This document shows positions 1-16,429 of a stretch of 32,000 nt of DNA, piece by piece. Each line of letters starts with the position of its first letter. Within the stretch, counting starts at the first letter, position 1. Both the position numbers and the translations under genes were made by a program. The stretch covers positions 1,710,001 to 1,742,000 of the forward strand of contig NC_010628.1 in the NCBI RefSeq assembly GCF_000020025.1, read 5' to 3'. Under the pieces are notes generated by a model, which saw only the letters and a program-made list of their open reading frames with translations, was not told the origin of the DNA and made no database searches. This stretch comes from Nostoc punctiforme PCC 73102 (GTDB lineage: Bacteria > Cyanobacteriota > Cyanobacteriia > Cyanobacteriales > Nostocaceae).

Positions 1-563
1 TTATTCCACCAAGCGGTCATATTGCAGGAGTTTATGCACGGGTTGATGGACAAAGGGGAGTACACAAAGCCCCTGCCAATGAAACTATTTTGGGAGCTTT
101 AGATTTAAAATATAATCTCAGCAAAGCCAAACAAGATGGGCTTAATCCCGATGGAATTAACGTTATTCGCAAATTAAACGGGAATATCCGCGTTTGGGGT
201 GCGCGTACCTTGGGCGGAGATGCAAATACTGAGTTCAAATACGTCAATATTCGTCGGCACTTTAGTTACCTGCGAGACTCCATTGATAAAGGGACTCAAT
301 GGACAGTTTTTGAACCCAATACCCCCGAACTCTGGGCAAAAATCCGCCGCAATATCAGTGCTTTTTTATTGATAGAGTGGCGCAAAGGTGCATTATTTGG
401 CACAACACCCCAAGAAGCTTTTTATGTGAAATGTGATGCCGAAACCAACCCCCCAGAAGTGCGGGATTTGGGTCAAGTTGTCACAGAGATTGGCATAGCA
501 GTTGTGAAGCCGGCAGAATTCGTGATTTTCCGTCTGAGTCAGTGGACTGGGACGGGAACGTAG
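1..563 (+). CDS. Contractile tail sheath protein, C-terminal part (5' end lies outside the window), paralogue A
   Basis: Frame 3 is open from nt 3 (IPPSGHIAGVYARVDGQRGVHKAPANE...), so the ORF-track start at 90 is an internal Met. The blocks WGARTL, YVNIRR, FEPN..LW, EAFYVKCDAETNPPE are shared almost residue for residue with the next ORF and match the sheath C-terminal domain. Confidence 0.9.
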   Translation, partial: IPPSGHIAGVYARVDGQRGVHKAPANETILGALDLKYNLSKAKQDGLNPDGINVIRKLNGNIRVWGARTLGGDANTEFKYVNIRRHFSYLRDSIDKGTQWTVFEPNTPELWAKIRRNISAFLLIEWRKGALFGTTPQEAFYVKCDAETNPPEVRDLGQVVTEIGIAVVKPAEFVIFRLSQWTGTGT

Positions 564-580
564 GGGATGGGGAATAGACA

Positions 581-615
581 AATAGGCAATAGGCAATAGG
601 CAATAGGCAATAGGC
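581..615. repeat. Heptamer tandem repeat AATAGGC x5 (STRR-like) in the sheath-sheath intergenic spacer
   Basis: Five perfect contiguous copies were read directly. A second heptamer run, AATGACA AATGACA AATGCCA (649-669), contains the ATG of the next gene. Confidence 0.95.
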
Positions 616-663
616 AAATTTTCTTACTCCCCACTGAAAATAATTACGAATGACAAATGACAA

Positions 664-1764
664 ATGCCAACTTTAGAGCCAAAAATACCAGGTATCTCTT
701 TAAACTATGTCGTTCCTACTCCAGAACCTGAGTTACTAACAGGTGTTCCGGTATTCTTTGGTCTGGTTACAGAGGAAGTGAAAGAAGCAAAAAAGCTAAC
801 CTTGGCGACGCATTTTCAGCAGTATTTTGGTCAAGCTAAGGGATATTTAGCAGATGCAATCAAAGGATTTTTTGAAAACGGAGGTCGTCTTTGTTATGTT
901 ATAGCCTTATCTAACAATACTCTTGAAGCTCTGCAACAAGGTTTAGAGACAAGCGAAGTCTTAGAAAATATTGATTTGATTTGTGTTCCCGACATCATGC
1001 TTGGTTCAGATGGGGAAGTTATTCAGATGCAGCAAGCTATTTTAAAACATTGCGAGCAGATGGGCGATCGCTTTGCCATTCTTGATGCTTTGAATGATAT
1101 AGGAAAACTAAATGAGCAACGCAAACGAATTTCTAGTCAAAACGGAGCATTATACGCACCTTGGCTAAAAGTAGAATTTCGCGTCGATCCTATTCCTGCC
1201 TGTGGTCATATTGCAGGAATATATGCAAGTTGCGATCGCACAGTCGGGGTACATGGCGCACCTGCTAATATTCCACTTGCAGGGGTACTGGATCTCAGTT
1301 TTTCCCTAACTCCCACAGATCAAGAACAGCTGAATCCAAAAAACGAAGCGGGAGTCAATTGTATCCGTAGCTTCCAAGGACGAGGTATGCGAGTGTGGGG
1401 AGTACGTACCCTCAGCCCCATCCCAGAATGGCAATATGTCAACGTGCGTCGCTTATTTCTCACCTTTGGACGCTGGGTGAATCGTAATTTAGCCGATACA
1501 GTGTTTGAACCAAATGCTTTTCCTTTATGGGTGCGACTGCAAAGGGAATTAAGCATTTATTGTGAATCTTTATGGCGACAAGGCGCTATCCAAGGTGCTT
1601 TGCCACAAGAGGCATTCTATGTCAAATGTGATGCTGAAACGAATCCCCCTGAAAATCGAGAAATGGGACAAGTAATAGCAGAAATAGGTTTAGCCCCCAC
1701 TATTCCAGGGGAATTTATTCAACTTTTAGTTGTTCAAAGTAGTAGCGGAATTACACTTACTTAA
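664..1764 (+). CDS. Contractile tail sheath protein, paralogue B (366 aa)
   Basis: Motifs: CVPDIM, YAPWLKV, IPACGHIAGIYASCDRTVGVHGAPAN, GVNCIRSFQGRGMRVWGVRTL, YVNVRR, EAFYVKCDAETNPPE. It is colinear with the C-terminus of the preceding partial ORF. Confidence 0.9.
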   Translation: MPTLEPKIPGISLNYVVPTPEPELLTGVPVFFGLVTEEVKEAKKLTLATHFQQYFGQAKGYLADAIKGFFENGGRLCYVIALSNNTLEALQQGLETSEVLENIDLICVPDIMLGSDGEVIQMQQAILKHCEQMGDRFAILDALNDIGKLNEQRKRISSQNGALYAPWLKVEFRVDPIPACGHIAGIYASCDRTVGVHGAPANIPLAGVLDLSFSLTPTDQEQLNPKNEAGVNCIRSFQGRGMRVWGVRTLSPIPEWQYVNVRRLFLTFGRWVNRNLADTVFEPNAFPLWVRLQRELSIYCESLWRQGAIQGALPQEAFYVKCDAETNPPENREMGQVIAEIGLAPTIPGEFIQLLVVQSSSGITLT

Positions 1765-1791: not shown

Positions 1792-2232
1792 ATGCCTACG
1801 ATTTCTAACCCCCATGACCCATACAGTGGTTATAATTTCTGGGTGGAATGGGATGGTATTGTTCATGCTGGGTTTCGTGAATGTAGTGGTTTGACAGCGA
1901 CTCGCAAAGCAGGAACTTATCGAGAAGGAACAGATAAAGCATTAAGCCAACGTCAAATTCCCGGTCTTAATACTTATGGTAACATTACCCTAAAACGAGG
2001 AGTTACCGATAACAAAGAACTGTGGGAATGGCATAAAAAATTACAGAATGGTGAGACAGATAGACGTAATCTTTCCATTATTTTGGCTAACGATCAAGGA
2101 GAAGAAAAAATTCGCTGGAATTTAGAAAATAGCTGGCCTACTATTTGGAATGCTCCAGGTTTTAATGCCACCTCAGACGAGGTAGCGATAGAAACTCTCG
2201 AACTAGTTCATGAAGGTATTACCATTGGTTAA
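1792..2232 (+). CDS. CIS/phage tail tube protein (T4 gp19-like family), paralogue 1
   Basis: AGGAGG lies 8-13 nt upstream. N-terminal DPYSGYNFWVEWDGI..AGFRECSGL and C-terminal IETLELVHEGI are the typical conserved ends of gp19-type tube proteins. It sits immediately after the sheath. Confidence 0.85.
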   Translation: MPTISNPHDPYSGYNFWVEWDGIVHAGFRECSGLTATRKAGTYREGTDKALSQRQIPGLNTYGNITLKRGVTDNKELWEWHKKLQNGETDRRNLSIILANDQGEEKIRWNLENSWPTIWNAPGFNATSDEVAIETLELVHEGITIG

Positions 2233-2252: not shown

Positions 2253-2615
2253 ATGCAGCAAACTGAATTTCCTTTTATCTTGCCTCAAGGATATCTCGAC
2301 TCGGAAGGTAACACTCACCGCGAAGGCATTATGCGCCTTTCAACTGCCTATGATGAAATTGCCCCCATCCGAGATCCAAGAGTGCAGAAAAATCCTGGTT
2401 ATTTGGTGATTATTCTCTTAGCAAGGACGATAGTCCAACTAGGAACATTAGACCAAATTAATACCAAAATAATTGAGGGTTTATTTTCAGGAGATTTAGT
2501 CTATTTACAGGATTTTTATCAAAGGATTAACCAAAACGGTCATAGTCGTTTGCGGGTAGCGTGTCCCCATTGTGATGGAGAGTTTGAAGTGGAAACTATT
2601 CCCGTGGGGGAGTAG
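2253..2615 (+). CDS. Small conserved CIS protein with C-terminal CPHC zinc-ribbon-like motif; positional equivalent of a tail assembly chaperone
   Basis: The 120-aa ORF lies between the tube and the tape-measure candidate, as P2 gpE does. It ends ...ACPHCDGEFEVETIPVGE. The functional call rests on position only. Confidence 0.55.
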   Translation: MQQTEFPFILPQGYLDSEGNTHREGIMRLSTAYDEIAPIRDPRVQKNPGYLVIILLARTIVQLGTLDQINTKIIEGLFSGDLVYLQDFYQRINQNGHSRLRVACPHCDGEFEVETIPVGE

Positions 2616-2767
2616 TTTGCTACCCCACAGAACGACTGCTGGAGGAGGTAGCTTACCTTGCCTACAATTTTCATTGGTCTTACGAACAGATTATGACAAT
2701 GGAACACCGAGAACGTCAACAGTGGGTAACGCAGGTAGCACAAATTAATCAGCGACTTAGCGATTGA
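2588..2767 (+). CDS. Conserved mini-ORF (YPTERLLEEVAYLAYNFHWSYEQIMTMEHRERQQWVTQVAQINQRLSD) with no in-frame ATG/GTG/TTG before its conserved part
   Basis: The frame (nt mod 3 = 2) is open from the TGA at 2585-2587 to the TGA at 2765-2767. It is not in the ORF track. From memory, the peptide resembles a roughly 50-aa family found in CIS loci (annotated DUF6760 in some databases); this needs an HMM check. It overlaps the end of the 2253-2615 ORF and the TTG at 2764 of the next gene. Confidence 0.6.
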   Translation, partial: SGNYSRGGVVCYPTERLLEEVAYLAYNFHWSYEQIMTMEHRERQQWVTQVAQINQRLSD

Positions 2768-3261
2768 GCAAGAAAGAAATGAATCCCAAACTTATCGCAC
2801 TAAATGCAGCTTTAGCCGCAGGTTCAACAGCCAGTTTATTGGGACACGATCCCTACATGGCTTATAACTTTGCTGTTGAAATTGGAGGAGTTGTTGTTGG
2901 TGGTTTTAGTGAAGCTAGCGGTTTAAGTAGTGAAATTGAGTTGGAATCTTATCAGGAAGGAGGCTTAAACGATTTTGTTCATAAATTTCCCAAACATACT
3001 ACTTATCCAAATTTGGTTTTGAGTCGAGGATTAGTAAATATTGATTTGTTTTATATTTGGTATAAAGCAACTAGCCAAGGGTGGATTGAGCAGTTAAACG
3101 GTACGATTCTTTTACTTAATAGTCAGCAAATTCCGGTAATGTGGTGGACGTTTAAAAAAGCATATCCCGTCAAGTGGGAAGGGCCAACCTTTAATGCTAG
3201 TAGTGACGCAATTGCTGTAGAAAAAATTGAACTAGTGCATCAAGGAATTTCTAAGTTATAG
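2764..3261 (+). CDS. CIS/phage tail tube protein (gp19-like), paralogue 2, with an N-terminal extension of about 30 aa
   Basis: DPYMAYNFAVEIGG..GGFSEASGL and VEKIELVHQGI parallel paralogue 1. The start is either the TTG at 2764 or the ATG at 2779 (same frame). Confidence 0.85.
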   Translation: MSKKEMNPKLIALNAALAAGSTASLLGHDPYMAYNFAVEIGGVVVGGFSEASGLSSEIELESYQEGGLNDFVHKFPKHTTYPNLVLSRGLVNIDLFYIWYKATSQGWIEQLNGTILLLNSQQIPVMWWTFKKAYPVKWEGPTFNASSDAIAVEKIELVHQGISKL

Positions 3262-3273
3262 GAATTTAGAGGG

Positions 3274-3302: not shown

Positions 3303-3364
3303 AAGGAGGTTCTTATAGTTGTACTCAGCTTTGTAAAAATTGCATAGGAGTTTTGTGTTGCATC

Positions 3365-4909
3365 ATGGCAAATTTATCCAATTGGCAAGATTCACTGGAT
3401 GAGGCGTTAGTAAATCGCCTGCATCGTCCCTTACGTCAACCGGGAATGATGAAAATGGCGATGGGTCAGCGCATTATTAATCGTTGCGATCGCTTTTTAA
3501 ATCGTTTACCTCTTTTGACTCAACAAATGCAACGTTGGGGTAATACTAATAGCCTATCATCTGAGTCTATCCCCATTGTTTATGCACAGCCTGTTTCATT
3601 AGTAAAAGAACAAGAAGTAGAGAATAGAGTATATAATTTACCAACTGTCTCCCAAGTTGATCCTTCGGCTAATATAATTCAAAGAAAATTAGATTCTTCT
3701 CAATCTTTAGCAACTAAAACAGTTAATACTACTATCCCTGTCCAAAATATAACAGAATTCTCAAGCTCGGATGTTGCGGATGAAACAACCAAATCTTTAA
3801 CTTTAGAAACACAAATTAATAAAACCTCTATATCTTCATCTGAGCTTCCAGTAGTTTCGCCAAAACCAATTGCTGAACAATTACCAAAAACAGCAAAAGT
3901 GACGTTAGGAGATTCCACAGGCTCGCAAGCATCTTTGCCTAATAGTGCTGAATCAAATCTCAATCATTCATCTCAACCGATTCTAGATACCACTTCTATC
4001 TTTTCATCGGAAATTCCCGTAGTTTTGCCACAACCCATCGCTGAAGAATTCCCAAAAACAGCAGAAATGGCGTTAGCAGATTTGATAGGCTCGCAAACAT
4101 CTCTACCTAATAGCGCTGAATCAAATCTCAATCATGCATCTCAACCGATTGTAGATGCCAGTTTTATGTTTTCATCAGAAATTCCCGTAGTTTCGCCACA
4201 ACCCATCGCTGATCAATCGCCAGATACAGGAGAAATACAGTCATCACAAGAATTTCCCAGCTTTACTGATACAACCCTACCTATTATTCAAGCAAAACTT
4301 CAGAATTATTCCAGACCACAGCCATCTCTTCCTATTGTTAATAATTTAAATAATTTAGCTAACCAACAAACGCAAGTAGATAATTACGCAGGCAATTTAA
4401 GCTTAATCAAGCACGAACCAAAACAACTTCCTATCGTCACGGCTCAACCTCTAAGTCCTCAAGCTAATTTGCCTCAGCAGGAAATATCATTTGCTATCAA
4501 TTCGCTAACTTCTCAAAATAAATCTGGAAAGTTCCTCAACACACAACCTATTACTGTTTCTACCTCACAAATTAATCAAACTAATCACAAGCAAAATATA
4601 TCTTCCCTTCCCCTTGTCTCTGTAACTTCTACAAGTAACCCATCCTTAAAAGCTCAATCTTTGCCTTTAGCCGGAGCTAAAACTACCCCATCATCAAGGA
4701 GTAATAGCCAGCAATCAAACCTATCAAACCACAATTTAATATCAAATATTGATTCTTCATCACCTCCTATAACTTTTGCCAGTCCTGTATCACCAATAGC
4801 AACTCAATCCAATATTGACGTTGATGCTATAGCGAGTCAAGTTGAACGCAAACTAATGCGACGGTTAGTCATTGAAAGTGAACGCAGAGGGAAAAATCGA
4901 TGGCACTAG
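3365..4909 (+). CDS. Low-complexity S/P/Q-rich protein; candidate tail tape-measure / length-determining protein
   Basis: Its position (after tube/chaperone-like genes, before LysM and gpD-like) equals P2 gpT. It has a basic helical C-terminus, DVDAIASQVERKLMRRLVIESERRGKNRW. The ATG at 3365 is preferred over the track's TTG at 3353, because AGGAG at 3346-3350 is too close to 3353. Confidence 0.5.
   Translation: MANLSNWQDSLDEALVNRLHRPLRQPGMMKMAMGQRIINRCDRFLNRLPLLTQQMQRWGNTNSLSSESIPIVYAQPVSLVKEQEVENRVYNLPTVSQVDPSANIIQRKLDSSQSLATKTVNTTIPVQNITEFSSSDVADETTKSLTLETQINKTSISSSELPVVSPKPIAEQLPKTAKVTLGDSTGSQASLPNSAESNLNHSSQPILDTTSIFSSEIPVVLPQPIAEEFPKTAEMALADLIGSQTSLPNSAESNLNHASQPIVDASFMFSSEIPVVSPQPIADQSPDTGEIQSSQEFPSFTDTTLPIIQAKLQNYSRPQPSLPIVNNLNNLANQQTQVDNYAGNLSLIKHEPKQLPIVTAQPLSPQANLPQQEISFAINSLTSQNKSGKFLNTQPITVSTSQINQTNHKQNISSLPLVSVTSTSNPSLKAQSLPLAGAKTTPSSRSNSQQSNLSNHNLISNIDSSSPPITFASPVSPIATQSNIDVDAIASQVERKLMRRLVIESERRGKNRWH
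3827..4235 (+). repeat. In-frame 168-bp (56-aa) tandem repeat, about 2.4 copies, inside the tape-measure candidate
   Basis: Units start at 3827, 3995 and 4163. Compare SSSELPVVSPKPIAEQLPKTA...SLPNSAESNLNHSSQPI with FSSEIPVVLPQPIAEEFPKTA...SLPNSAESNLNHASQPI and with FSSEIPVVSPQPIADQSPDTG. Confidence 0.9.
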
Positions 4910-5562
4910 AGAAATTAACTATCAAGGCCGAAAAAAATAACCCAGGAGATTTTGCTGATAAATTTAAAGTTCTTTTTAACCCTAATCAAGTGGAAATTGT
5001 CAAAACAGGCTGGTCAATGGGAAACTATGGCCCAGTTGCATCTAAAGAATTAACTCAACTCAGTCTTGATTTGTTCTTTGACACCACGCTGATGGGATTT
5101 CCCCCAGAAAATGTCCAAAACTATACCCGCAAAATTTTTAGTTTGACTCAGTCTCGCATTGGCAAAAATCCTAAACGTCCCCCTCGTTGTCAACTGATTT
5201 GGGGAACTATATCAGGTAAAGATAGCTTGTTATTACCTGATGGTTTTTTAGAAAGTGTCACTAAAAAACTTACTCATTTTCTCGAAGATGGTACGCCTGT
5301 CAGAGCAACTTTAAACTGTAAATTTAAGGAGTGGAAAGAACCAAAAAAAAAGGCAAAGATTGCTAATCCCATTGATGATCCTGTGAGAATTGTTAAACGA
5401 GGAGAAACTTTAAGTAGTATTGCCACTGAAGAATATGGCGATCCGGCTCTATGGCGTGTAATTGCAGCAGAAAATCGCTTAAACAATCCTCGGATGTTAA
5501 ATCCTGGAACTGTGCTGACAATTCCTCCTTTGCGAATTACTAGCCTGACTCAGAGGAGTTAA
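4900..5562 (+). CDS. LysM-domain CIS protein (tube-like N-terminal part plus C-terminal LysM)
   Basis: The C-terminal VRIVKRGETLSSIATEEYGDPALWRVIAAENRLNNPRMLNPGTVLTIPP is a canonical LysM. Its ATG overlaps the end of the previous gene, which suggests translational coupling. Confidence 0.85.
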   Translation: MALEKLTIKAEKNNPGDFADKFKVLFNPNQVEIVKTGWSMGNYGPVASKELTQLSLDLFFDTTLMGFPPENVQNYTRKIFSLTQSRIGKNPKRPPRCQLIWGTISGKDSLLLPDGFLESVTKKLTHFLEDGTPVRATLNCKFKEWKEPKKKAKIANPIDDPVRIVKRGETLSSIATEEYGDPALWRVIAAENRLNNPRMLNPGTVLTIPPLRITSLTQRS

Positions 5563-5565: not shown

Positions 5566-6636
5566 ATGCCAAATGATTCTTCATTATTAAATCCTAATGT
5601 CAAAATTTTGGTTCAAAATAAACCCCTAGCCGCAGAAATAGAAGCTGATTTAGTCTCAGTTTTAGTATCTGAGGATTTGGAAGCTCCTGGTATGTTCGAA
5701 CTGCGATTGATTACTTGGGACTTATTAAAACAAGAAATGACATGGGTAGATGACAAATTATTTGATATTGGCAATAAAGTAGAAATTCAGATGGGATATG
5801 AACAAGAAATAAAAACCATTATGGTGGGAGAAATTACGGGATTAGAACCAGAATACACGCAGGATGTAGCACCTATATTAGTGGTGCGTGGTCATGATTT
5901 ACGCCATCGTTTGTTGCGAGGCAGTCACACAAAATCCTTTCTAAAAATTAAGGATAGTGAAATTGTCAGTCAAATTGCTAGAACTAGAGGAATTACAGCA
6001 AAAGTTACTGATAGTAAAGTGAAGTTAGAATATATTTTGCAGCATAATCAAACAGATTGGGATTTTTTAAAAGAGAGAGCTAAACGTATTGGTTATGAAG
6101 TTGCAATGGAGCAAACAACTCTCTATTTTCGTCCCCATCAGAATGCTAAAGGTAAAGCTTTGACTTTAACTTATGGAGCAGATTTGCAAGAATTTTTGCC
6201 ACGCTTAAGTACTATGAACCAGGTACAACAGGTAGAGGTAAAAGGTTGGATTTATCAAGAAAAAAATAAAAAAGAAGTCTCAGGTAAGGCAGAAGTAGGA
6301 AAAGAAGGTGGCACAATGGGAGGTTTAACTTCTGGGGTAAAAGCAGTCAGAAAAGCCTTTGGTGAATCAAGCCATACGATAGTAAATCAACCTGTGTCAA
6401 GTAAAGAAGAAGCCGATAGCATGGCATTGGGGCAGTTTCAGGATATGGCGATCGCTTACATTACCGGTGAAGGAACTTGTCAAGGTAATCCCAATTTACG
6501 CGCTGGGAAAGTAATTGAAATTCTTGGAATTGGTAAAAGATTTAGCGGTCTTTATTATATTAAAAGTGCGGAACATAGTTGTTACCCAAATCAGGGTTAT
6601 AAAACTTCATTTACGGTAGGGAGAAATGCTACATGA
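5566..6636 (+). CDS. Phage late control gene D (gpD)-like baseplate hub protein
   Basis: The size (356 aa), the block QTDWDFLKERAKRIGYEV, the ending ...YKTSFTVGRNA, and the position directly before the spike gene support the call. Confidence 0.8.
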   Translation: MPNDSSLLNPNVKILVQNKPLAAEIEADLVSVLVSEDLEAPGMFELRLITWDLLKQEMTWVDDKLFDIGNKVEIQMGYEQEIKTIMVGEITGLEPEYTQDVAPILVVRGHDLRHRLLRGSHTKSFLKIKDSEIVSQIARTRGITAKVTDSKVKLEYILQHNQTDWDFLKERAKRIGYEVAMEQTTLYFRPHQNAKGKALTLTYGADLQEFLPRLSTMNQVQQVEVKGWIYQEKNKKEVSGKAEVGKEGGTMGGLTSGVKAVRKAFGESSHTIVNQPVSSKEEADSMALGQFQDMAIAYITGEGTCQGNPNLRAGKVIEILGIGKRFSGLYYIKSAEHSCYPNQGYKTSFTVGRNAT

Positions 6637-7340
6637 ACGGACTAGATGTTTTATTATCAAACAACCAAAATCATCATTTTTATGGTGTAACTATTGGTGT
6701 AGTCACTAATAACAAAGACCCAAAGAAGTTAGGAAGAGTCAAAGTAAAATTTCCTTGGCTATCTTCTGAAGAAGAAAGTTACTGGGCTAGAGTGGTAACT
6801 CTCATGGCAGGAAATGACCGGGGCATTTATTTTTTGCCTGAAGTTGATGATGAAGTTTTGGTTGCTTTTGAACAAGGTGATATGAATTTTCCTTACATTC
6901 TTGGTGCTTTATGGAATGGGAAAGATAAACCACCAATAACAAATGAAGATGGTAAAAATAATCAACGAGTCATTAAATCTCGAAGCGGTCACATGATTGT
7001 TTTAGATGATACTGAGGAAAACGAACAAATTATTATTCAAGACAAGACTGGTAAAAATAAAATTGTAATTAATTCTAAAGAAAATAAGATGAATATTCAA
7101 GTTGAAAAAGATTTAACTATTGAAACCAAAGGAAAAATTATCTTAAAAAGTAGCGATGATGATATCTCGATTGACTGTAAAAACTTGCAAATAAAAACTC
7201 AACAAAATTATCAATTAGAAGTAGGTGCAAATTGTACAATCAAAGCTAAATCTAAATATAAACTGGAAGCGCAATCTGGCTTAGGGATCAAATGTGCAGC
7301 CGGAGTGAAAATAAATGATGGTTCATTGGAAGTGATGTAA
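6633..7340 (+). CDS. Baseplate spike protein (gpV / gp5-OB / VgrG-like) with C-terminal beta-helix
   Basis: YGVTIGVVTNNKDPKKLGRVKVKFPWL....YWARV....AGNDRGIYFLPEVDDEVLVAFEQGDMNFPYILGALWNG is the OB-fold spike signature. The C-terminal part shows an alternating beta-strand periodicity. There is an ATGA overlap with gpD-like. Confidence 0.88.
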   Translation: MNGLDVLLSNNQNHHFYGVTIGVVTNNKDPKKLGRVKVKFPWLSSEEESYWARVVTLMAGNDRGIYFLPEVDDEVLVAFEQGDMNFPYILGALWNGKDKPPITNEDGKNNQRVIKSRSGHMIVLDDTEENEQIIIQDKTGKNKIVINSKENKMNIQVEKDLTIETKGKIILKSSDDDISIDCKNLQIKTQQNYQLEVGANCTIKAKSKYKLEAQSGLGIKCAAGVKINDGSLEVM

Positions 7341-7726
7341 TGGAGATTGATTTTTTAGGTGTGGGATGGGCTTTACCTGTCCAGCTTGATAAAAATGCTC
7401 AAATTGAGGTGGCGCGCTATGAAGATGTTGTGCGTCAATCAATTTGGATGATTCTCAGTACGGCCAAAGGAGAACGAGTAATGCGTCCTGATTTTGGCTG
7501 TGATATTCATGAAAAGGTTTTTTCTCCTAATAGTTTGGGAACGGTTGGACAAATTGTTAGTGATGTGCAAGATGCTTTAATAGAATGGGAGCCTCGCATT
7601 GATGTTTTAGATGTAGATACCATTCCCGATCCTAACCAACCGAATGTGATTTTAATTCAAATAAATTATCAAATTCGGACAACAAATAATATTTTTAATT
7701 TAGTTTATCCTTTTTATTTACAGTAA
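7340..7726 (+). CDS. GPW/gp25-family baseplate wedge protein
   Basis: GWALPV...SIWMILSTAKGERVMRPDFGCDIHEKVF plus the 128-aa size. There is a TAATG overlap with the spike gene. Confidence 0.9.
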   Translation: MEIDFLGVGWALPVQLDKNAQIEVARYEDVVRQSIWMILSTAKGERVMRPDFGCDIHEKVFSPNSLGTVGQIVSDVQDALIEWEPRIDVLDVDTIPDPNQPNVILIQINYQIRTTNNIFNLVYPFYLQ

Positions 7727-10700: not shown

Positions 10701-11277
10701 TTGGCTCGATCCGACTAAACCAAATGTGCTGTTTGAAGATAGTCTCCGGGAAAAGTTGCAGACAATTAATGCTACCGAAGCAGAGAACTTTGAAAAAATG
10801 ATGCGGGAAATTAACCGTCGTGCAGGGCAAGTTAAGCTAATGATTCTGCCCTACAGTAGCGATCGCCAACCAACCCCTAGTTTAGCTTTACTAGAGCAAG
10901 TCGAAACCTACATTCGTTCCCGTTGTGCGGGGACAGTAGATTTAGTGGTTACAGCCCCAAAATGGCGAGAAGTCACCGTAACTGCAACTATCACTCCTGT
11001 GTTGCTCGAAGATGCAGACATGGTGAGAAATATCGTTAGACAACACTTAGAAGCCTTTCTCCATCCCTTAACTGGGGGAACAGGGGAGGGCTGGCAATTT
11101 GGACGCTACCCGCAGAAATCCGATTTTTACGCCATTATTCAATCTATTACGGGAGTAGATCATGTTAATTCCCTAGAGGTGGAATTACCTACAACAAAAA
11201 GCAAGTCATTACTAAGTGCTGATTCTTTAATTTATTCTGGTCATCACACCGTCAATCTTAGTTCACTTTTAAATTGA
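7732..11277 (+). CDS. Giant baseplate J / gp6-like protein (1181 aa)
   Basis: The N-terminal DQRTYEEIVEQ...ALIRIFGRMVKLVSDRINQVPEKNFLAFLDLIG and C-terminal RDRAVTLEDIADLA...GWQFGRYPQKSDFYAIIQSITGVDHV are the conserved ends of baseplate-J-type proteins. It follows gp25 as in P2 (W then J). Confidence 0.8.
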   Translation: MASLPPKIDQRTYEEIVEQTEKLVEQSTDWKATPGNKTDAGGALIRIFGRMVKLVSDRINQVPEKNFLAFLDLIGGELKPPQPAKVPLTFYLAQGSPTDALVPAHTQVSAPPAEGADEEIVFETDRELVVTTTQLQAVFLREPNQDKYSDLSEMLYEKRTLSGTGQQDGAFLALEGDRSITHSLYITCPEILALPELKELQLIITTNNTVESVNQLQTLPLNWSYWDGSQWQSIQAPSQSQNNNQSTITFTFANLPIPAPYELQGKTARWLQANLNNISSLIGNFPQFTNIQGTINIKQSNLIPEVCLFNTTPLDLTKDFYPFGEQPEINDTFYIALNDTFIKPNATISIDIILTYKPVNINNLKIVWEIGNGGVWQEIADKNNQLKWIAQSSAIQFTEKDTIQAKLQFPSAENIPSPSTVNGETRYWIRARITQGHYGKAADERLYPVYDDLAVLRKEFKQGANEIEVDTLDLFKTGDAIRILPYTEGFSEENKITQIIKETNRLKLETGVLNTTLGVGTRIMRKLIITETIPPTYDPPLLKSLKLTYEFTLTEKAIYCAENDFIYSHPEKSSTQSFQPFTPTIDREPTLYLGFDNSFNNKTVTLYTQFEAPLPNELSADITEKTVLASTVNTGDKTLQIADLTGWQTGDRLQIQNPLNTKQYDNYIISNISNNLVTTNQPLQQNYPQNTPVIRPQQPQLVWEYSSPLGWQPLGVEDETQAFSQPGLIRFIAPADLSPRENFGKKLYWLRVRWVSGNFRVKPRLRRLLTNTIWAVQAISLQEEVLGSSNYEPNQVFIANNIPILMGQQLEIQEAQIPLNIESHRIKVIKDNLGEIDEVWVLWQEVADFYGSSASDRHYTLDRQTGEIRFGNGQAGMIPPRGRNNIRLSFYRTGGGKQGNVTAQTISQLKTTIPYIDRVINLEAAAGGAQQETLDRLKERVPKQLRHRDRAVTLEDIADLAYEASTDVARVKVVTPDLLTADFSPLNEKLWLDPTKPNVLFEDSLREKLQTINATEAENFEKMMREINRRAGQVKLMILPYSSDRQPTPSLALLEQVETYIRSRCAGTVDLVVTAPKWREVTVTATITPVLLEDADMVRNIVRQHLEAFLHPLTGGTGEGWQFGRYPQKSDFYAIIQSITGVDHVNSLEVELPTTKSKSLLSADSLIYSGHHTVNLSSLLN

Positions 11278-11302: not shown

Positions 11303-12250
11303 GTGACTTTACCCTTACCCAATCTTGACGATCGCAGCTATGCCAACTTACTAGAAGATGCAATTTCTCAGATTCCGCTTGAATACCCAGAATGGACAGA
11401 TCATAATCCTACAGATACGGGAATTATTCTGATTGAATTATTGGCATGGTTAACAGAAATGGTTCTCTACCGAGTTAATCAAATTCCTGATGAGAATTAT
11501 GCTAGCTTTTTGAGTTTACTTAAAGGAGAGGAATGGAATTTACCCATTAATATTTCTACCCAGGAACGACAAAATATTTTGCAATCAGAAATTCAAAAAA
11601 CTTTATTAGAAGTACGCAAAATTTATCGAGCCATTACTCCAGAAGATTTTGAAAAATTGGTAATTTTCGATTGGAATAAATCACAATATGCTGATAACTT
11701 AAAAATTGCTAGGGTTAAATGTTTAGCACAATGTAATTTAGAGTCAACATCTGATAACTTTGCTAAAGGACATATTAGTTTAGTAGTTGTTCCTGAAGAT
11801 AACGAAATAACTCAAGTAAATAAATATGAACCTTTATTTAAATTTCTTGACGATCGCAGACTTTTAACTACCCGACTGCATATCTTAGAACCTGAGTATG
11901 TATCCATAGCTATAGAATCAGAATTAGTGCTTCAGGATGGCGCACAAGCAGAAGCAGTTAAAACACAGGCAGAAAAGGAAGTCAAGATGTTTTTTGAACC
12001 CCTGCGATCGCAAAAATATTGGCAGGGAAAAGGATGGCCTTTTGGCCGGAGTGTTTATCTATCAGAATTATATAAATTATTAGATGACTTAGAAGGTGTA
12101 GATTATGTTGAAAACCTGCAAATTAAAGATAAGAATAATAACTCTAAATCTGAAATCAATTTAGCAGATAATCAGTTAGTTAAAATCAATCTCAAAGATA
12201 GCAAATTTACAATATTGGTAGAAGTTGGTAATGAACGTAAAAAAATCTGA
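11303..12250 (+). CDS. Mini baseplate-J paralogue (315 aa)
   Basis: GTG start with GAGGA upstream. The N-terminus (DDRSYANLLEDA...IILIELLAWLTEMVLYRVNQIPDENYASFLSLL) and C-terminus (RAITPEDFEKLV...GWPFGRSVYLSELYKLLDDLEGVDYV) align with the two ends of the 1181-aa protein. The central ~870 aa are absent. Confidence 0.7.
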   Translation: MTLPLPNLDDRSYANLLEDAISQIPLEYPEWTDHNPTDTGIILIELLAWLTEMVLYRVNQIPDENYASFLSLLKGEEWNLPINISTQERQNILQSEIQKTLLEVRKIYRAITPEDFEKLVIFDWNKSQYADNLKIARVKCLAQCNLESTSDNFAKGHISLVVVPEDNEITQVNKYEPLFKFLDDRRLLTTRLHILEPEYVSIAIESELVLQDGAQAEAVKTQAEKEVKMFFEPLRSQKYWQGKGWPFGRSVYLSELYKLLDDLEGVDYVENLQIKDKNNNSKSEINLADNQLVKINLKDSKFTILVEVGNERKKI

Positions 12251-13826
12251 ATCAGTTAGTACCTATCATCAATATTTACCAGCAATTCTCCAAAAAGATG
12301 TTTTTATTGCTCAGTTGTTGCTGTCATTTGAAAAAATTCTCAGTGGAGTAAGTGAAACTCCCAGTCAAGAGCAAATTATTACAGCCAAGACTCAAAATAT
12401 ACCAGGATTAGAAGAAATTATTGATAATATTCATGTTTATTTTAATCCTCAACATACTCCAAAGGAATTTTTACCTTGGTTAGCGGGTTGGGTAGCCTTG
12501 AGTTTACGAGATGATTGGGAAGTAGAAGTCAAAAAAGCATTTATTCAACAAATTGTTCACCTATACGGTTTGCGAGGAACAAAAGCAGGATTAATCGAAA
12601 TTTTGAGTATTTATTTAAAAAATTCAGGATTTGGAGAAAAAGTTGAAGTATTCGATCAATTTGATAATTTTCCGAATTATTTTCAAGTTCAACTAACTCT
12701 CAAAGACCGCGATCCTGATAAGTATTGGCGACAGGCTAAAATTGCTAAAGCAATTATCGATAGAGAAAAGCCTGCACAGACATTTTATTCATTAAAAATT
12801 CTTGTGCCAACGATGCAGCTAACTAAGCGATCGCACGTTGCTTATCCTTGCAAATTGTTTGCACCTCCAAAAAATCAAACCTTTGCCATAGAAGCCACGA
12901 TCACTCCCAACAACATTAATAGCATTCCAATTAATCAATTAGCGAACCAGTTAGCTATTCAGATCCAAGGAAACTCGGAATTAATTACCCCTTACTCACC
13001 AGAAACAATTATAACTAATCAATCATTTTCAACTAAACAAAATTTAAATTATCAGCATTTACAAGAAAACTTGGCAGGCTTCAATGTTATATTGTCAAAT
13101 CGAACCGATAAACAGTTTGTGGGCAATTTAACTATCAAGCTGTATTTTTCAATTAATGAAATTGAATATAACAATACACTCCTAGAACAACCTGTAAATT
13201 TATCACCAGTCCTAAAAATTTGTCGTGAAAATGAGAAAAGAGAAATTATTGCAGGAAATACAATTTTTAAACAAAATAGTCAGCCACAACAATCGGGAAT
13301 GAAGCTGACAGAGTTTATATGGACTAAACCCTATAACTTTCTACTGTTTGAACCACCAAAAATTCAGGAGTTACAACCTGATATAACTGCGATTATTGAA
13401 AAAGTGAAATTTGCAGCAATTGTAGAAATTACCCAACCAAATACAATCAACTCAGATTTACTAAATCAAATCACAGTTCGCCTTCAAGATGATGTTTCAG
13501 AATTTTATTTATTGACACCAGAAACTGTCAGACAAAATAATACAATTATAATTAAACGTACTCTTTATTACCAAGAGTTTATACATATAGATAAATTTAC
13601 AGTGATAATCAAAAACCTCAATAATCTTGATATTGCTGGTAAAGTAACTGTTCAAGCTTCCTTAAATATTAATCAGCGCTTATCTACTTATAAAATACTA
13701 GAGCAAACCTTTAACCTCACAGCCGTCTCTCCCTATAATATTTTACAAATTTGCCGTAAAAATGAGGAAGGTAAAATTATTTCTGGTAACACAATTCTAG
13801 GAACAACTAGTCAATCATTGAACTAA
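12231..13826 (+). CDS. P2 gpI-like tail/baseplate protein with a duplicated C-terminal module
   Basis: The N-terminal YLPAILQKD...FLPWLAGWVALSLRDDW....IVHLYGLRGTKAGLIEILSIY matches the gpI-type tail protein domain. The ATG at 12231 is preferred to the TTG at 12225. It overlaps the previous gene by 20 nt. Confidence 0.75.
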   Translation: MNVKKSESVSTYHQYLPAILQKDVFIAQLLLSFEKILSGVSETPSQEQIITAKTQNIPGLEEIIDNIHVYFNPQHTPKEFLPWLAGWVALSLRDDWEVEVKKAFIQQIVHLYGLRGTKAGLIEILSIYLKNSGFGEKVEVFDQFDNFPNYFQVQLTLKDRDPDKYWRQAKIAKAIIDREKPAQTFYSLKILVPTMQLTKRSHVAYPCKLFAPPKNQTFAIEATITPNNINSIPINQLANQLAIQIQGNSELITPYSPETIITNQSFSTKQNLNYQHLQENLAGFNVILSNRTDKQFVGNLTIKLYFSINEIEYNNTLLEQPVNLSPVLKICRENEKREIIAGNTIFKQNSQPQQSGMKLTEFIWTKPYNFLLFEPPKIQELQPDITAIIEKVKFAAIVEITQPNTINSDLLNQITVRLQDDVSEFYLLTPETVRQNNTIIIKRTLYYQEFIHIDKFTVIIKNLNNLDIAGKVTVQASLNINQRLSTYKILEQTFNLTAVSPYNILQICRKNEEGKIISGNTILGTTSQSLN

Positions 13827-13840: not shown

Positions 13841-15712
13841 ATGGCTAAAACTACTGATTTCACCAATTTTGGTAATGAACGTCCTAACTATTTTGCAGGG
13901 CAATATCTGTTAGAAGATGATTTTGAAATTCAACATAAATATTTTAGCGATCGCCAACGCTACCATAATCAAAGTCTTCATATTTCAGGTATTGTTGAAG
14001 GGTTAGAAGTTGCAGTTATTCAGGATACAAAATCTGTTCAAATTAAATCTGGATCGGCTATCAATACTAGCGGCGATTTAATTATTTTAAAAGAAAATAT
14101 TACATTTTCCGACTTCAAAAATCTCATTGACGGCGTACTCTACATCCAATATGCCCAAGATAAACAAATTCAACAGCAAAAAGATGTACCAGATAGCTAT
14201 ACTCGTTGGATTGAAAAACCTATTTTGGGATTTGCAACTACAATTCCTGAAAATAGCGTCAACCTGGGAAAACTAACAATAGCTCAAAATACCATTACTC
14301 TTGATGCTAACGTTCGGGAATATTCTGGTTTATCCTTACCAAATTCTAATAGTAAAGCTTTAACTCTTCGCTCTGGAGGAAATGCCACTCCAAACTTAGC
14401 AGTTTTGACAGGTAGCTTAAAAATTGATGGGGATTTAACAGTAGCTGGGACAATCTCAGGAACAATAGATACAAAAAATATTACTTCTGGAATATTAAAT
14501 GTTGAAAGAATTCCTAATTTATCGACTGATAAAATCACTTCTGGAACATTAAATGTTGACAGAATCCCTAATTTATCGACTGATAAAATCACTTCTGGAA
14601 CATTAAATGTTGACAGAATCCCTAATTTATCAGCAAATAAAATCACTTCTGGAACAATTGTTGGCGATTTAACTGTTAATGGTAATATTACAGGTAAAAA
14701 CTTATCCCTTTCAGCAGACGGTAGTAAGCGTGGTGTATTATTTCTTGCTTCAATAGGAGACTATAACCACGTACTGTATAATAACCTGTCTAACATAGAT
14801 AATGAGGGAGTGTGGGATGGAGCCAAGTGGAATGTCTTTAACGGATTAAATATCCGAGTAGGAAGTGGTAGCTCTAAAAGTACAGCTTTTTATATCAATA
14901 ATAATGGTAATGTTGCCATTGGCATCAATAATCCAGGTGACTACAAATTAAATGTGCAAGGTAATCAGTTGCTTAAAGGTAGTCTAACTATTCAGGAAGG
15001 TAGAGTTAATCTTGATGGCAGTCAACAAATTGTTTTTTCAGATAATGGAACTACAAACCAGCTGAAATTACAACTTTGGAGTGGATATGGTCTCGGTATT
15101 AATGGTTCTACTTTATTCTATACAGCTAGCGGCAATCATTCTTGGCGAGATAGTCAAAATATTGAAAGAATGTTGTTAAGCACTGCTGTAGATGGTGGGT
15201 TAACAGTCAAAGGAACAGGAAGTTCTTCTTTTGCTGGAAATTTAACTGTAACTGGTTCTTTATCGGTGGGTATATCTGTTGGAAGTACAACGAATATTGA
15301 CCTATCAGGCCATATCCAACTCAAAGAATATGGACAACAGAATATTGCTTTTCTTCAAGCACGAGACGACTCATCCAATCGAAATATTGGTTTGAGAATT
15401 AGAACGCAAACACAAGGTAGTACACAAAGAACCCTTGTAGACGCAGTAACCATTACTCCCAGTGGAGAAATACAGGGAAAGATTTGGTATTCTGACGAAT
15501 ATGTATGGAAGAATGGTCAAACTGATGTCAAGATGGGACACAGTAGTAAATGCGTTGCATTTCTAACATATATGCAAGGAAAATTTGCTGGTAGTGGCGA
15601 ACAAGTTTTTACTTATATAGGAAGTGACGGATATTGGTATCTTGGTGGAAAGCAGGGAGGTGGAGGTGCTGATATAGTCGCCAAAGCAAGATGTATTGGT
15701 TCTCCTAGTTAG
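13841..15712 (+). CDS. Tail-fibre-like protein (623 aa)
   Basis: Its position after gpI-like equals P2 gpH. It has a tandem ITSGTLNVDRIPNLSTDK fibre-type repeat and is Gly/Ser/Asn/Thr-rich with a beta-rich periodicity. Confidence 0.65.
   Translation: MAKTTDFTNFGNERPNYFAGQYLLEDDFEIQHKYFSDRQRYHNQSLHISGIVEGLEVAVIQDTKSVQIKSGSAINTSGDLIILKENITFSDFKNLIDGVLYIQYAQDKQIQQQKDVPDSYTRWIEKPILGFATTIPENSVNLGKLTIAQNTITLDANVREYSGLSLPNSNSKALTLRSGGNATPNLAVLTGSLKIDGDLTVAGTISGTIDTKNITSGILNVERIPNLSTDKITSGTLNVDRIPNLSTDKITSGTLNVDRIPNLSANKITSGTIVGDLTVNGNITGKNLSLSADGSKRGVLFLASIGDYNHVLYNNLSNIDNEGVWDGAKWNVFNGLNIRVGSGSSKSTAFYINNNGNVAIGINNPGDYKLNVQGNQLLKGSLTIQEGRVNLDGSQQIVFSDNGTTNQLKLQLWSGYGLGINGSTLFYTASGNHSWRDSQNIERMLLSTAVDGGLTVKGTGSSSFAGNLTVTGSLSVGISVGSTTNIDLSGHIQLKEYGQQNIAFLQARDDSSNRNIGLRIRTQTQGSTQRTLVDAVTITPSGEIQGKIWYSDEYVWKNGQTDVKMGHSSKCVAFLTYMQGKFAGSGEQVFTYIGSDGYWYLGGKQGGGGADIVAKARCIGSPS
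14480..14662 (+). repeat. In-frame 54-bp (18-aa) tandem repeat, about 3.4 copies, inside the fibre gene
   Basis: Units start at 14480, 14534, 14588 and 14642 (partial). Copies 2 and 3 are nearly identical at nucleotide level. Confidence 0.95.
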
Positions 15713-15759
15713 TGCGATCGCCAAGCTTATAAAATATATTTGCAACTCAATATGACTCT

Positions 15760-16188
15760 ATGGCTGACTTCATTCTCATCACTGGCGATAAAGCCATATT
15801 TAACCCTACTTTTGGACAAGCCATTGTCACCGTCCGTCCAGGCGATCTAGTTGGCACAGGCAAGGATAAAATTAACCAGAAACTAGTCTGTGTAGATGGC
15901 GACGAAAAAAAAGTCATCGTTCCTGGTTGTCCTTATATAACTTCCCAATATAGTATCCCTGGAGTTGGGATACTATCCATTGAATCCCTTGCTGGCAACC
16001 AAAAAGCCAAAAAGACAAAATCTGGTGATAAACCAGTACTGCTCAAAGGTGCTTCATTTAAAGCCAAATTTCAAGTCCTGGTTCCCGCACAAAAACCTTC
16101 TGTACCTAGTCCCATACCCGATGCAACCCCCCAATATTCCGGTACTGGCACATTTATTTCTGTGAATAGCAAAGTCAAAGGAACTTAA
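15760..16188 (+). CDS. Hypothetical 142-aa protein at the distal end of the CIS operon (function unknown; spike-tip, cargo or fibre-chaperone role are guesses)
   Basis: It is an ORF on the same strand, 47 nt after the fibre gene. I recognised no motif with confidence. The C-terminal third is Pro/Ser-rich. Confidence 0.5.
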   Translation: MADFILITGDKAIFNPTFGQAIVTVRPGDLVGTGKDKINQKLVCVDGDEKKVIVPGCPYITSQYSIPGVGILSIESLAGNQKAKKTKSGDKPVLLKGASFKAKFQVLVPAQKPSVPSPIPDATPQYSGTGTFISVNSKVKGT

Positions 16189-16195
16189 TTAAATA

Positions 16196-16429
16196 ATGAA
16201 AGAACAATTAGAAAAACGCCTTACTGAGCTCAAAGCCGAATTGGTATCAGGACAAAAAGTCATGGCAGATTTAGAGGCGAAACAAGCAAATCTGCGCGAT
16301 ACCTTACTGCGGATTAGTGGTGCAATTCAAATTTTGGAAGAACTCACATCTTCTACTAAGCAAGATGATTATCAAAATAATAATTACGTACAAGAGGAAT
16401 CAAACGTTCAATATCAATTAAAAGATTGA
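16196..16429 (+). CDS. Hypothetical 77-aa coiled-coil protein
   Basis: It starts 7 nt after the previous stop. It shows a heptad-like pattern (LEKRLTELKAELVSGQKVMADLEAKQANLRDTLLRISGAIQILEEL) and an acidic/Q/N tail. Confidence 0.5.
   Translation: MKEQLEKRLTELKAELVSGQKVMADLEAKQANLRDTLLRISGAIQILEELTSSTKQDDYQNNNYVQEESNVQYQLKD

Follow-up and report, generated by a model that had tools for sequence, protein, structure and literature searches.

The stretch of DNA analysed here (the window: NC_010628:1,710,001-1,742,000 of Nostoc punctiforme PCC 73102, 32,000 nucleotides (nt) in all) is filled from position 1 to position 16429 by 16 genes, all on the + strand, as judged by Pfam, NCBIfam and PHROG searches. 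Very probably these genes are the structural operon, with its first 2.25 genes cut off by the window edge, of an eCIS-family particle (eCIS, extracellular contractile injection system) whose operon runs from Npun_F1400 onward. The original prediction, made from the letters of the window, had proposed a phage-tail-like contractile injection system (CIS) encoded by about sixteen same-strand tail and baseplate genes; all of them are present on the + strand where it had placed them, and the family searches match. The locus as such is already known, being present in a published eCIS catalogue as operon 66540 (NC_010628:1697384-1735488; Geller et al. 2021, PMC8213781, Supplementary Data). That catalogue places Npun_F1403 at NC_010628:1710664-1711764, i.e. 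window 664-1764, and gives genes of the operon, some of them upstream of the window, the labels afp15, DUF4157, afp16, afp2_3_4 and afp1_5. What may be new is a predicted frameshift in the chaperone gene and a heteromeric baseplate wedge, and nothing else. The protein accessions of the operon range from ACC80110 to ACC80122, where ACC80110 is the 366-aa sheath protein, ACC80119 the 1181-aa J protein and ACC80122 the 623-aa product of the fibre open reading frame (ORF). The features, in window coordinates, are as follows.

1..563, + strand: long sheath paralogue Npun_F1402, 481 aa, of which the 3' 186 codons lie in the window; Phage_sheath_1 and sheath_1C (Pfam match 3-563)
664..1764, + strand: short sheath paralogue Npun_F1403, 366 aa; Pfam sheath 1.6e-16
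1792..2232, + strand: inner tube protein Npun_F1404, 146 aa; Phage_T4_gp19 1e-43, TIGR02241 8e-42
2253..2615, + strand: tail-assembly-chaperone-like protein Npun_F1405, 120 aa; phrog_508 E 0.0024, C-terminal CPHC...zinc-ribbon-like motif
2588..2767, + strand, -1 frame: unannotated DUF6760 frame; Pfam DUF6760 6.8e-13 on the translation
2779..3261, + strand: second tube paralogue Npun_F1406, 160 aa; Phage_T4_gp19 2e-38, TIGR02241 match
3365..4909 (alternative start 3353, 518 aa), + strand: Ser/Pro/Gln-rich protein, 514 aa, in the tape-measure position and a candidate by that position
4900..5562, + strand: Afp7/Cis7-type tube-baseplate adaptor with LysM; CIS_tube 2.6e-21, LysM 9e-7
5566..6636, + strand: gp27/gpD-like N-terminal half of a split spike (Afp8/Cis8); VgrG_rel 6e-56, phrog_52 1.8e-32
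6633..7340, + strand: gp5/gpV-like C-terminal spike half, OB fold and needle; Phage_base_V 1.9e-31, VgrG_rel 9e-46
7340..7726, + strand: gp25/TssE-like sheath-baseplate adaptor (Cis9); GPW_gp25 1.7e-27
7732..11277, + strand: long Afp11/Cis11 wedge protein, 1181 aa, ACC80119; Baseplate_J 1.4e-17, TIGR02243 1.6e-77
11303..12250, + strand: short Afp11/Cis11 paralogue, 315 aa; TIGR02243 2e-39, PDB Cis11 2.7e-28
12231..13826, + strand: Tail_P2_I/TssG-like wedge protein (Cis12 equivalent), 531 aa from ATG 12231; Tail_P2_I 7e-11, TIGR02242 5e-16
13841..15712, + strand: tail fibre, 623 aa; conserved anchor and variable tip, TssK-like fold in an AlphaFold2 (AF2) model
15760..16188, + strand: spike tip protein (Afp10/PAAR-like); CIS_spike_tip 1.6e-53 over its full length
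16196..16429, + strand: 77-aa ORF, last gene of the conserved block, from the ORF list; homologues in two other loci

Read base by base, the gene junctions are tight and the overlaps quoted by the original prediction proved correct to the base: ATG 4900 overlaps the preceding gene by 10 nt, an ATGA at 6633-6636 joins the GPD and V ORFs, TAATG stands at 7338-7342, and from ATG 12231 to the stop at 12250 two genes overlap by 20 nt. The likelier start codons are ATG 2779, 3365, 12231 and 16622, with 12225 as an alternative upstream start of the Tail_P2_I ORF; for Npun_F1406 gene callers take ATG 2779, the earliest in-frame start codon being TTG 2764. The named tail families that the prediction listed were likewise recovered (sheath, gp19, LysM, GPD, base_V, gp25, Baseplate_J and Tail_P2_I), two of them just below the Pfam cut-off: 27.9 bits against 30.1 for Phage_GPD in the 5566-6636 ORF, and 20.2 bits against 21.1 for Baseplate_J in the short Cis11. 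Pfam gave no match for the ORFs 2253-2615, 3353/3365-4909 and 13841-15712. The two sheath paralogues are 41% identical to each other, and the long one starts 883 nt before the window, its full gene lying at 8455-9900 of a contig that reaches further upstream (L001, described below). Npun_F1406, which scores 114 bits against CIS5_fam (cut-off 260), is probably a tube initiator or adaptor. The terminal 77-aa ORF reads MKEQLEKRL...LRISGAIQILEE, with heptad-like Leu/Glu/Lys repeats judged by eye, and in Calothrix PCC 7507 and Leptolyngbya PCC 7376 homologues of 68 and 72 aa likewise come after the gene for the tip.

The feature of the operon that concerns us most lies at the end of Npun_F1405. The family of this 120-aa protein is 75-98% identical across cyanobacteria, comprises 1331 clusters in a representative library and has two invariant last residues, G119 and E120; NCBI names its near homologues 'phage tail assembly protein'. 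Both the chaperone-like character of this small ORF, which had been proposed from the letters, and the tape-measure position of the 518-aa ORF stand, the former through weak matches to chaperone families: that to phrog_508, one of its extension to Phage_P2_GpE (0.021) and one of a single actinobacterial homologue to Phage_TAC_7 (0.18). The AF2 model of the protein, with a predicted local distance difference test (pLDDT) score of 50, is unusable for fold search. From 25 nt ahead of the 120-aa ORF's stop onward the -1 frame is open, and its translation at 2588-2767 yields the same peptide that in Leptolyngbya is called as a 44-aa DUF6760 gene after the 120-aa ORF; besides DUF6760, the only Pfam match of this frame is the one to Phage_P2_GpE, the P2 E' extension family. 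In N. punctiforme no ATG, GTG or TTG stands within 2588-2767 ahead of the conserved YP..RL.EEVAY segment. The same overlapping -1 relation is found in 81 of 82 cyanobacterial loci, not one of these 82 has a start codon before the invariant Tyr-Pro, and in 46 there is none before the whole conserved region.

The nucleotide sequence at the overlap is itself unusually fixed. Among 73 unique sequences GGGGGAGT is invariant, reading xxG GGG GAG in the 0 frame and followed in most loci by the stop codon, and so is GCTACCC, 8 nt beyond it, with its 'GC' fixed even where the first codon base, and hence the amino acid, varies, which argues for a constraint at the level of RNA. GCTACC pairs with a GGTAGC 22 nt downstream, forming a perfect 6-bp stem in 62 of the 73; synonymous positions are unusually fixed (GAG 93%, GTA 90%), and the local fold has a z-score of -2.0. 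In N. punctiforme this places the predicted slip site, GGGGGAG(T), at 2606-2613 and the predicted stem arms at 2619-2624 and 2647-2652. The heptamer G GGG GAG is non-canonical (not X XXY YYZ), and the stem is too invariant for covariation.

As a control we used 80 actinobacterial-type metagenome loci, 74 of them scorable. In 70 of these 74, DUF6760 forms an independent ORF that has a start codon, frequently within an overlap of the ATGA type; over the 74 loci its frame varies (47 in -1, 22 in 0 and 5 in +1). This contrast between a fixed, start-less -1 frame in cyanobacteria and a separate DUF6760 ORF in actinobacterial-type loci supports a lineage-specific -1 frameshift. An in-frame fusion running from the RRxxIEEV C-terminus into the DUF6760 start was considered for the actinobacterial proteins and dropped, DUF6760 beginning further downstream as an ORF of its own. 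Taken together, the sequence comparisons make a programmed -1 frameshift in Npun_F1405 at the conserved G5 run probable, the caveat being that DUF6760 could instead be made by non-canonical initiation. The predicted fusion would carry the junction peptide ...ETIPVGGVVCYPTER and, by analogy, would be the lineage-specific eCIS counterpart of E/E+E' in P2 and of G/GT in lambda. In N. punctiforme an extra tube gene intervenes between the DUF6760 frame and the tape-measure candidate. Neither the frameshift nor DUF6760 in eCIS is mentioned in the searchable eCIS papers, nor is the frameshift modelled in the public annotations examined. When IMG/VR was scanned with the chaperone alignment, four loci classed as viral were found; being 76-80% identical to the query, they are probably cyanobacterial. 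Separately, five metagenome loci (L142, L158, L161, L168 and L169) carry CPxC-type chaperone homologues with DUF6760 in the -1 frame after a G5-G8 run, the CPxC motif of L161 being missing in the region shown, and the frameshift may thus extend beyond cyanobacteria.

The second feature of interest is the baseplate wedge. The long Cis11 consists of N-terminal helices, an insertion of ~600 aa, the Baseplate_J core and a C-terminal domain, and it has 739 homologues, mostly cyanobacterial among those named. The short Cis11 keeps the N-terminal ~75 aa and the C-terminal domain only: it shows paralogy with the long copy over residues 3-77 and 1028-1159 of the latter, without the central Baseplate_J core, and its residues 1-73 and 178-273 correspond to residues 1-73 and 519-612 of the Streptomyces protein, Cis11(Sc). 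The Streptomyces wedge is built, as in R2 pyocin, from two copies of one 652-aa Cis11 and one Cis12 (PMC12237407). By analogy, we infer that the wedge here would comprise a long Cis11, a short Cis11 and a Tail_P2_I protein in single copy each, a heteromeric version of (Cis11)2:Cis12.

The third is the 514-aa protein, for which searches of Pfam, NCBIfam, PHROG and the PDB gave nothing. Conservation extends to 79 loci for the first 75 aa and to 67 for the last 49 aa, but to only 23-25 for the middle, and the homologues range in length from 355 to 1377 aa, a pattern compatible with a ruler. On balance we lean towards a combined reading of the three features, in which Npun_F1405 would be decoded in two ways, giving the 120-aa protein by termination and a DUF6760 fusion of ~171 aa by slippage on G GGG G aided by the hairpin; the 514-aa protein would thereby be marked as the true tape measure, and the two Cis11 proteins would form an obligate long/short heterodimer.

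We next consider how widely the operon is conserved. Searching a set of one genome per species with the 120-aa protein yielded 511 relatives, and the best 80 loci were examined, nearly all of them from cyanobacteria of many orders, with one labelled as an Actinomycetota metagenome-assembled genome. Genes were counted over the 46 loci with full 20-kb coverage. Both sheaths, both tubes and the 120-aa ORF are present in 46/46, the 514-aa ORF in 45/46, the cap, the LysM adaptor and GPD each in 44/46, V and gp25 each in 43/46, and the long Cis11 and an upstream CarboxypepD_reg gene each in 41/46; the short Cis11 was counted in 34/46, a figure limited by the locus ends. The genes counted keep the same order on the same strand throughout. 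In Leptolyngbya PCC 7376 and Calothrix PCC 7507 synteny goes on through the short Cis11, Tail_P2_I, fibre, tip and the ~70-aa ORF, and then ends.

The region upstream of the window was viewed on L001, one of many public contigs with the exact sheath protein, which reaches 10 kb upstream of the 366-aa sheath gene. It carries, in order, a Rieske protein, an AAA+ ATPase, a DUF4157 protein, the cap, a CarboxypepD_reg protein and the 481-aa sheath, as well as a 126-aa ORF without Pfam match. The genes of interest, in L001 coordinates, are these.

2714-4942, - strand: AAA+ ATPase with a winged-helix domain, Npun_R1398, 742 aa; AAA and WHD
5020-6672, - strand: DUF4157/eCIS_core protein Npun_R1399, 550 aa; domain at residues 193-269
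7084-7668: cap protein Npun_F1400, 194 aa; Pvc16_N
7683-8321: CarboxypepD_reg/transthyretin-like protein Npun_F1401, 212 aa; ~1.0-1.7 kb upstream of window nt 1

Npun_R1398, Npun_R1399 and Npun_F1400 thus lie 1.7-6.6 kb upstream of window nt 1. The original prediction had seen neither an AAA+ assembly ATPase nor a cap, which is true within the window and untrue of the locus: their absence is an artefact of the window edge, Npun_R1398 and Npun_F1400 adjoining it upstream. With the cap, which matches Afp16 (1e-11) and Pvc16 (7e-9) in the PDB, and the divergently transcribed ATPase counted in, all eight of the eight eCIS core components are found. DUF4157/eCIS_core has an HExxH metalloprotease-like motif (Geller et al. 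2021, PMC8213781), and Npun_R1399, the C-terminal half of which has no assigned domain, is the likeliest candidate for a cargo or toxin-handling component; a DUF4157 gene occurs within 10 kb upstream in only 17 of the 46 related loci. Npun_F1401, which has no PDB sequence match, stands between the cap and the first sheath gene and could decorate either cap or sheath. A P450 and a HAD hydrolase belong to operon 66540 further upstream (Geller et al. 2021, PMC8213781).

Further evidence concerns the class of the system. Two afp11 copies, the longer one upstream, are found in subtypes IIa and IIc (Chen et al. 2019, PMC6899500, section 10), and the same survey reports afp8 split into gp27-like and gp5-like ORFs in IIa, IIb and IIc, afp10 missing only from IIb, and divergent afp12/13 retained in IIa and IIb. 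N. punctiforme has every IIa trait: two afp11 genes (1181 and 315 aa), a split afp8 (positions 5-349 of the VgrG_rel profile in the GPD ORF and 370-541 in the V ORF), CIS_spike_tip, and Tail_P2_I with a fibre. The remaining core agrees, with sheath matches to Pvc2/3 and Afp2/3 in the PDB at 1e-33 to 1e-44 (short sheath versus Pvc2, 4e-42), CIS_tube and LysM for Afp7, GPD and Phage_base_V (together VgrG_rel 5-541) for Afp8, GPW_gp25 for Afp9, and for Afp11 Baseplate_J, TIGR02243 and a weak match to 6rao_I (7.5e-7). By contrast, the Streptomyces type, IId, does not accommodate two afp11 genes, a split afp8 and a fibre gene where CisA, downstream of the baseplate genes, would be. By gene content the locus therefore belongs to eCIS lineage II and subtype IIa fits it best, IIc sharing the first two traits. 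In this light the tandem sheaths, paired tubes and long and mini J proteins, which had been taken for departures from known systems, are published or ordinary eCIS features: two afp11 copies and a split afp8 are IIa/IIc traits, afp1/5 homologues are usually multi-copy, and AFP itself has three sheath genes, afp2/3/4 (PMC6899500).

How such a particle would act is best approached through its fibre. The N-terminal ~190 aa are nearly invariant among 563 relatives and the remainder, which in N. punctiforme carries three ITSGTLNVDRIPNLSTDK-type repeats, varies in length and sequence, many relatives ending in Peptidase_S74 (endosialidase-chaperone) or other domains. In the AF2 model the N-domain (~140 residues) resembles TssK (5y0e, E 4e-5, probability 1.0) and chains AA-AC of the Anabaena structure 7b5h (probability 0.97-0.98), and the C-terminus gives a weak H-type lectin match; the tip is possibly lectin-like and probably sugar-binding. 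A fibre class that is TssK-like and linked to Tail_P2_I has been described (PMC12923769), and the N. punctiforme fibre fits it. In 13 of the 46 loci (3117-3704 of L039 and 12 others) a second anchor-domain gene lies upstream of the cap, which suggests extra or alternative fibres in some genomes.

These components can be assembled into the following model. The split spike with the tip protein would nucleate the baseplate together with the LysM adaptor and the second paralogue of the tube; there would be six wedges, each made of a long Cis11, a truncated Cis11 and a Tail_P2_I protein, with the gp25-like protein tying the wedges to the sheath. The tube would then polymerise round the 514-aa protein, aided by the 120-aa chaperone and the predicted frameshift product, the two sheath paralogues would wrap it, and the Pvc16-like cap would end it, while the AAA+ ATPase would help in assembly or in cargo loading; the cargo itself may be the DUF4157 protein Npun_R1399. 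The particles would most likely be soluble in the cytoplasm, probably not membrane-anchored, and exposed or released at lysis. Trimeric fibres, held by a TssK-like anchor and ending in a rapidly evolving tip that probably binds sugar, would recognise a target surface, and this recognition would trigger contraction of the sheath, driving spike and cargo into the target. Within this overall explanation we favour, if by a modest degree, an extracellular or exposed mode of action, given the conserved anchor, the fast-changing tip and the want of any membrane segment.

Several points weigh against the model as a whole. The tape-measure assignment is that of a candidate, drawn from position and from the pattern of conserved ends and variable middle, and the subtype comes from gene content. 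The fibre model has low overall confidence (mean pLDDT 64), with only the N-terminal and C-terminal domains usable (block means of 73-91 in the former, mostly 77-93 in the latter). The extracellular mode is deduced from the fibre, when both of the systems best studied in multicellular bacteria, those of Streptomyces and Anabaena, act inside the producer. Lysis genes were found neither in the window nor in the 10 kb that precede it, which leaves particle release unexplained. Finally, the operon is known here from its genes, such that the particle, its expression and its localisation in N. punctiforme are predictions; a literature search on Npun_R1398, F1400, F1402-F1404 and F1411 found no paper, and no purified or imaged member of this cyanobacterial eCIS branch was found in the searchable literature.

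Of the alternatives, the one to be taken most seriously, albeit unlikely in our estimate, is that the particle works inside its producer as a stress-triggered cell-death device, its fibres docking on an internal membrane or partner. The nearest solved relative, the Streptomyces CIS, does act intracellularly (PMC12237407, PMC10066040), N. punctiforme is multicellular and differentiating like the hosts of both precedents (Streptomyces and the ghost-cell-associated Anabaena tCIS, the thylakoid-anchored contractile injection system), and the want of lysis genes in the window and the 10 kb ahead of it points the same way. However, the Streptomyces loci have no fibres and use the membrane protein CisA (PMC12237407), whereas here neither a transmembrane nor an amphipathic anchor was detected, and a classical fibre is present whose hypervariable tip, along with the endosialidase-chaperone domains of its relatives, follows the pattern expected for diverse external surfaces.

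Far less probable is the view, raised in the original prediction, that the operon is an orthologue or variant of the tCIS of Anabaena PCC 7120, anchored in the thylakoid through baseplate and fibre extensions. The host is likewise heterocystous, the long Cis11 (1181 aa) is close in length to All3317 (1231 aa), which it matches weakly at the C-terminus, the fibre N-domain shares the fold of 7b5h chains AA-AC, and there is a weak CIS13_fam match. Comparison with the PDB, however, gave the following values for the parts tested.

short sheath: Streptomyces 8bky 7.6e-70; Anabaena All3325 1e-38
long sheath: Streptomyces 8bky 2e-106; Anabaena All3325 3e-45
long Cis11: Streptomyces 9gtp 7.6e-65; Anabaena All3317 3e-5, C-terminus only
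short Cis11: Streptomyces 9gtp 2.7e-28; Anabaena, none at E<=0.1
Tail_P2_I: Streptomyces Cis12 9gtp_E 1e-4; Anabaena All3315, none at E<=0.1
cap: Streptomyces Cis16 9gts 5e-14; Anabaena All3327 0.012

These sequence comparisons single out the Streptomyces coelicolor CIS as the closest relative of solved structure, first for each part tested, and for sheath, cap and Cis11 it is nearer by far. The tCIS is defined by a Cis19 crown, a ~500-aa extension of Cis12 (residues 610-1100) and a C-terminal transmembrane helix of Cis13, and N. punctiforme is absent from the genomes with these features (Weiss et al. 2022, Table S2). Correspondingly, Tail_P2_I has only 531 aa and scores 54 bits against a CIS12_fam cut-off of 860, the fibre scores 33 bits against 370 for CIS13_fam (both cut-offs being missed more than tenfold), and no structural-operon protein in the window reaches the hydrophobicity threshold of 1.6 for a transmembrane segment, the fibre maximum being 1.03 (Kyte-Doolittle with a 19-residue window, a simple hydropathy measure and not TMHMM). 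No 7b5h chain was matched at E<=1 when the 623-aa, 518-aa and upstream 212-aa proteins, the 120-aa ORF not included, were compared with the PDB by phmmer, and the AAA+ ATPase present here has no Cis15 equivalent given for Anabaena (Weiss et al. 2022, Table S1). Orthology with the tCIS was rejected on the PDB comparisons, the NCBIfam cut-offs, the hydropathy scan and Table S2 of Weiss et al. (2022). Going by that paper's listing of tCIS features, the two may be separate systems that coexist, as this cluster type occurs in Tolypothrix PCC 7101 and Nostoc carneum NIES-2107, both of which are also on its tCIS list.

It is hardly credible that the locus is what remains of a defective P2- or Mu-like myovirus prophage, or an R-type tailocin: the gene blocks are P2-like internally, the chaperone with its likely -1 frameshift included, and the four related IMG/VR loci are classed as viral, but Pvc16_N, CIS_tube, CIS_spike_tip, DUF4157/eCIS_core and the AAA+ ATPase are markers that P2 and R-pyocins lack, neither the 10 kb upstream nor the 15 kb downstream contains head, terminase, integrase, repressor or lysis genes, and across the cyanobacterial orders the operon is widespread by vertical descent, with its synteny kept. 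Matches to capsid, portal, terminase and integrase families are wanting in the window, as the original prediction had held for capsid, terminase, integrase and lysis, and also in the 10 kb upstream and in the operon table of Geller et al.; since upstream head genes, which that prediction had named as the mark of a prophage, were not found, its reading as a contractile injection system holds.

Beyond the operon the window encodes a STAND-like P-loop protein, an nSTAND1-WD40 protein, a beta-carbonic anhydrase, an APH-type kinase, a Tudor-knot protein and a large adhesin-like ORF; it has no tRNA and no Rfam match. The first two of these genes, a 449-aa P-loop/STAND-like gene at 16622-17971 and an 1833-aa TPR-nSTAND1-WD40 gene at 18114-23615, with 14 WD40 stretches listed, were considered as effectors or regulators of the system and rejected, both being absent downstream of the operons of Leptolyngbya PCC 7376 and Calothrix PCC 7507. 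The P-loop gene is found in none of the 46 full-length related loci (0/46) and the WD40 gene gives two weak repeat matches only, so that, not being conserved neighbours of related operons, they are probably unrelated to this one and are not counted as parts; they fall in operon 66540 merely as flank (Geller et al. 2021, PMC8213781). A scan of 15500-24700 for promoters and terminators gave results at or under shuffle expectation, and no use was made of it. At 27429-28784 on the - strand lies a protein of 451 aa that ends in two Tudor-knot/chromo-like (Agenet/SAWADEE-like) repeats at its C-terminus, a domain type unusual for a bacterium. At 29561-32000 on the + strand an ORF of at least 813 aa, rich in Thr, Ser, Val and Ala and with Calx-beta/adhesin-like repeats by eye, runs past the window end; the ORF list missed it for want of a stop, and it explains the rise in GC at the end of the window.

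As to significance, the locus as such adds nothing beyond the eCIS surveys. N. punctiforme, however, is genetically tractable, plant-symbiotic and differentiating, and it bears a fibre-carrying eCIS distinct from the Anabaena tCIS, the only cyanobacterial CIS studied so far, which would make it a good model for the function of the widespread non-tCIS cyanobacterial systems. Were the frameshift true, a recoding event that ranks among the most conserved in tailed phages would reach bacterial injection machines, the long-sought length-determining module of lineage II, where afp14 is reported to be generally absent, would be identified, and the annotation of hundreds of genomes would be corrected. 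The long/short Cis11 pair, in turn, offers a natural test of how a wedge with two Cis11 copies diverges into distinct subunits.

Finally, the system can be set against its known relatives. In P2 and the R-pyocins the V-W-J-I-H block stands before the sheath block. The original prediction had described the gene order as that of P2 rather than of AFP/PVC, and this survives in part. Within each half the order is indeed P2-like (sheath, tube, chaperone, tape-measure candidate, LysM, D; then V, W, J, I, fibre), as in the P2 series FI-FII-E-E+E'-T-U-D and V-W-J-I-H-G and in R-pyocins, with gpD-, V-, W-, J- and I-type proteins and likewise a small chaperone gene with, behind it, a short -1 frame that is weakly similar to Phage_P2_GpE. 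Yet the block order is swapped, and the stretch from LysM to fibre is collinear with afp7-afp13. Unlike P2 and the R-pyocins, the locus has an extra tube paralogue, a LysM/CIS_tube adaptor and the eCIS-only markers (the Pvc16_N cap, CIS_tube, CIS_spike_tip, DUF4157 and the AAA+ ATPase), it has no lysis or regulatory genes, and the predicted slip site is a G5 run in place of a canonical X XXY YYZ heptamer. From AFP and PVC it differs in the positions of the cap, the tape-measure candidate, the tip and the ATPase.

It resembles the Anabaena tCIS (7b5h, 7b5i) in its heterocystous host, in a long Cis11 that carries additional domains, in the TssK-like fold at the N-terminus of fibre or crown proteins and in a PAAR-like tip; in contrast to the tCIS, it has no orthologue of the Cis19 crown, no Cis12 extension and no Cis13 helix, its sequences are distant, and it has an AAA+ ATPase, two sheath genes and a split spike where Weiss et al. 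(2022) name a single sheath, Cis2, and a spike, Cis8. The Streptomyces CISSc (IId; 8bky, 9gtp, 9gts) has the same order from sheath to wedge and also an extra tube paralogue. It has, however, one sheath gene, a single Cis11 of 652 aa that serves twice, an undivided spike, a Cis12 of 190 aa and the membrane adaptor CisA without a fibre, whereas N. punctiforme has two sheaths, a long and a truncated Cis11, a split spike, a 531-aa Tail_P2_I and a true fibre. In related actinobacterial-type loci DUF6760 is a separate, translationally coupled gene, whereas here it is start-less before its conserved N-terminal segment. The closest likeness is to eCIS subtype IIa (Chen et al. 2019; Geller et al. 2021), which has the same core, afp11 pair, split afp8, PAAR-like tip and divergent afp12/13, and from which nothing structural differs; in keeping with lineage II, the DUF4157 gene adjoins the ATPase in the N. 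punctiforme locus.

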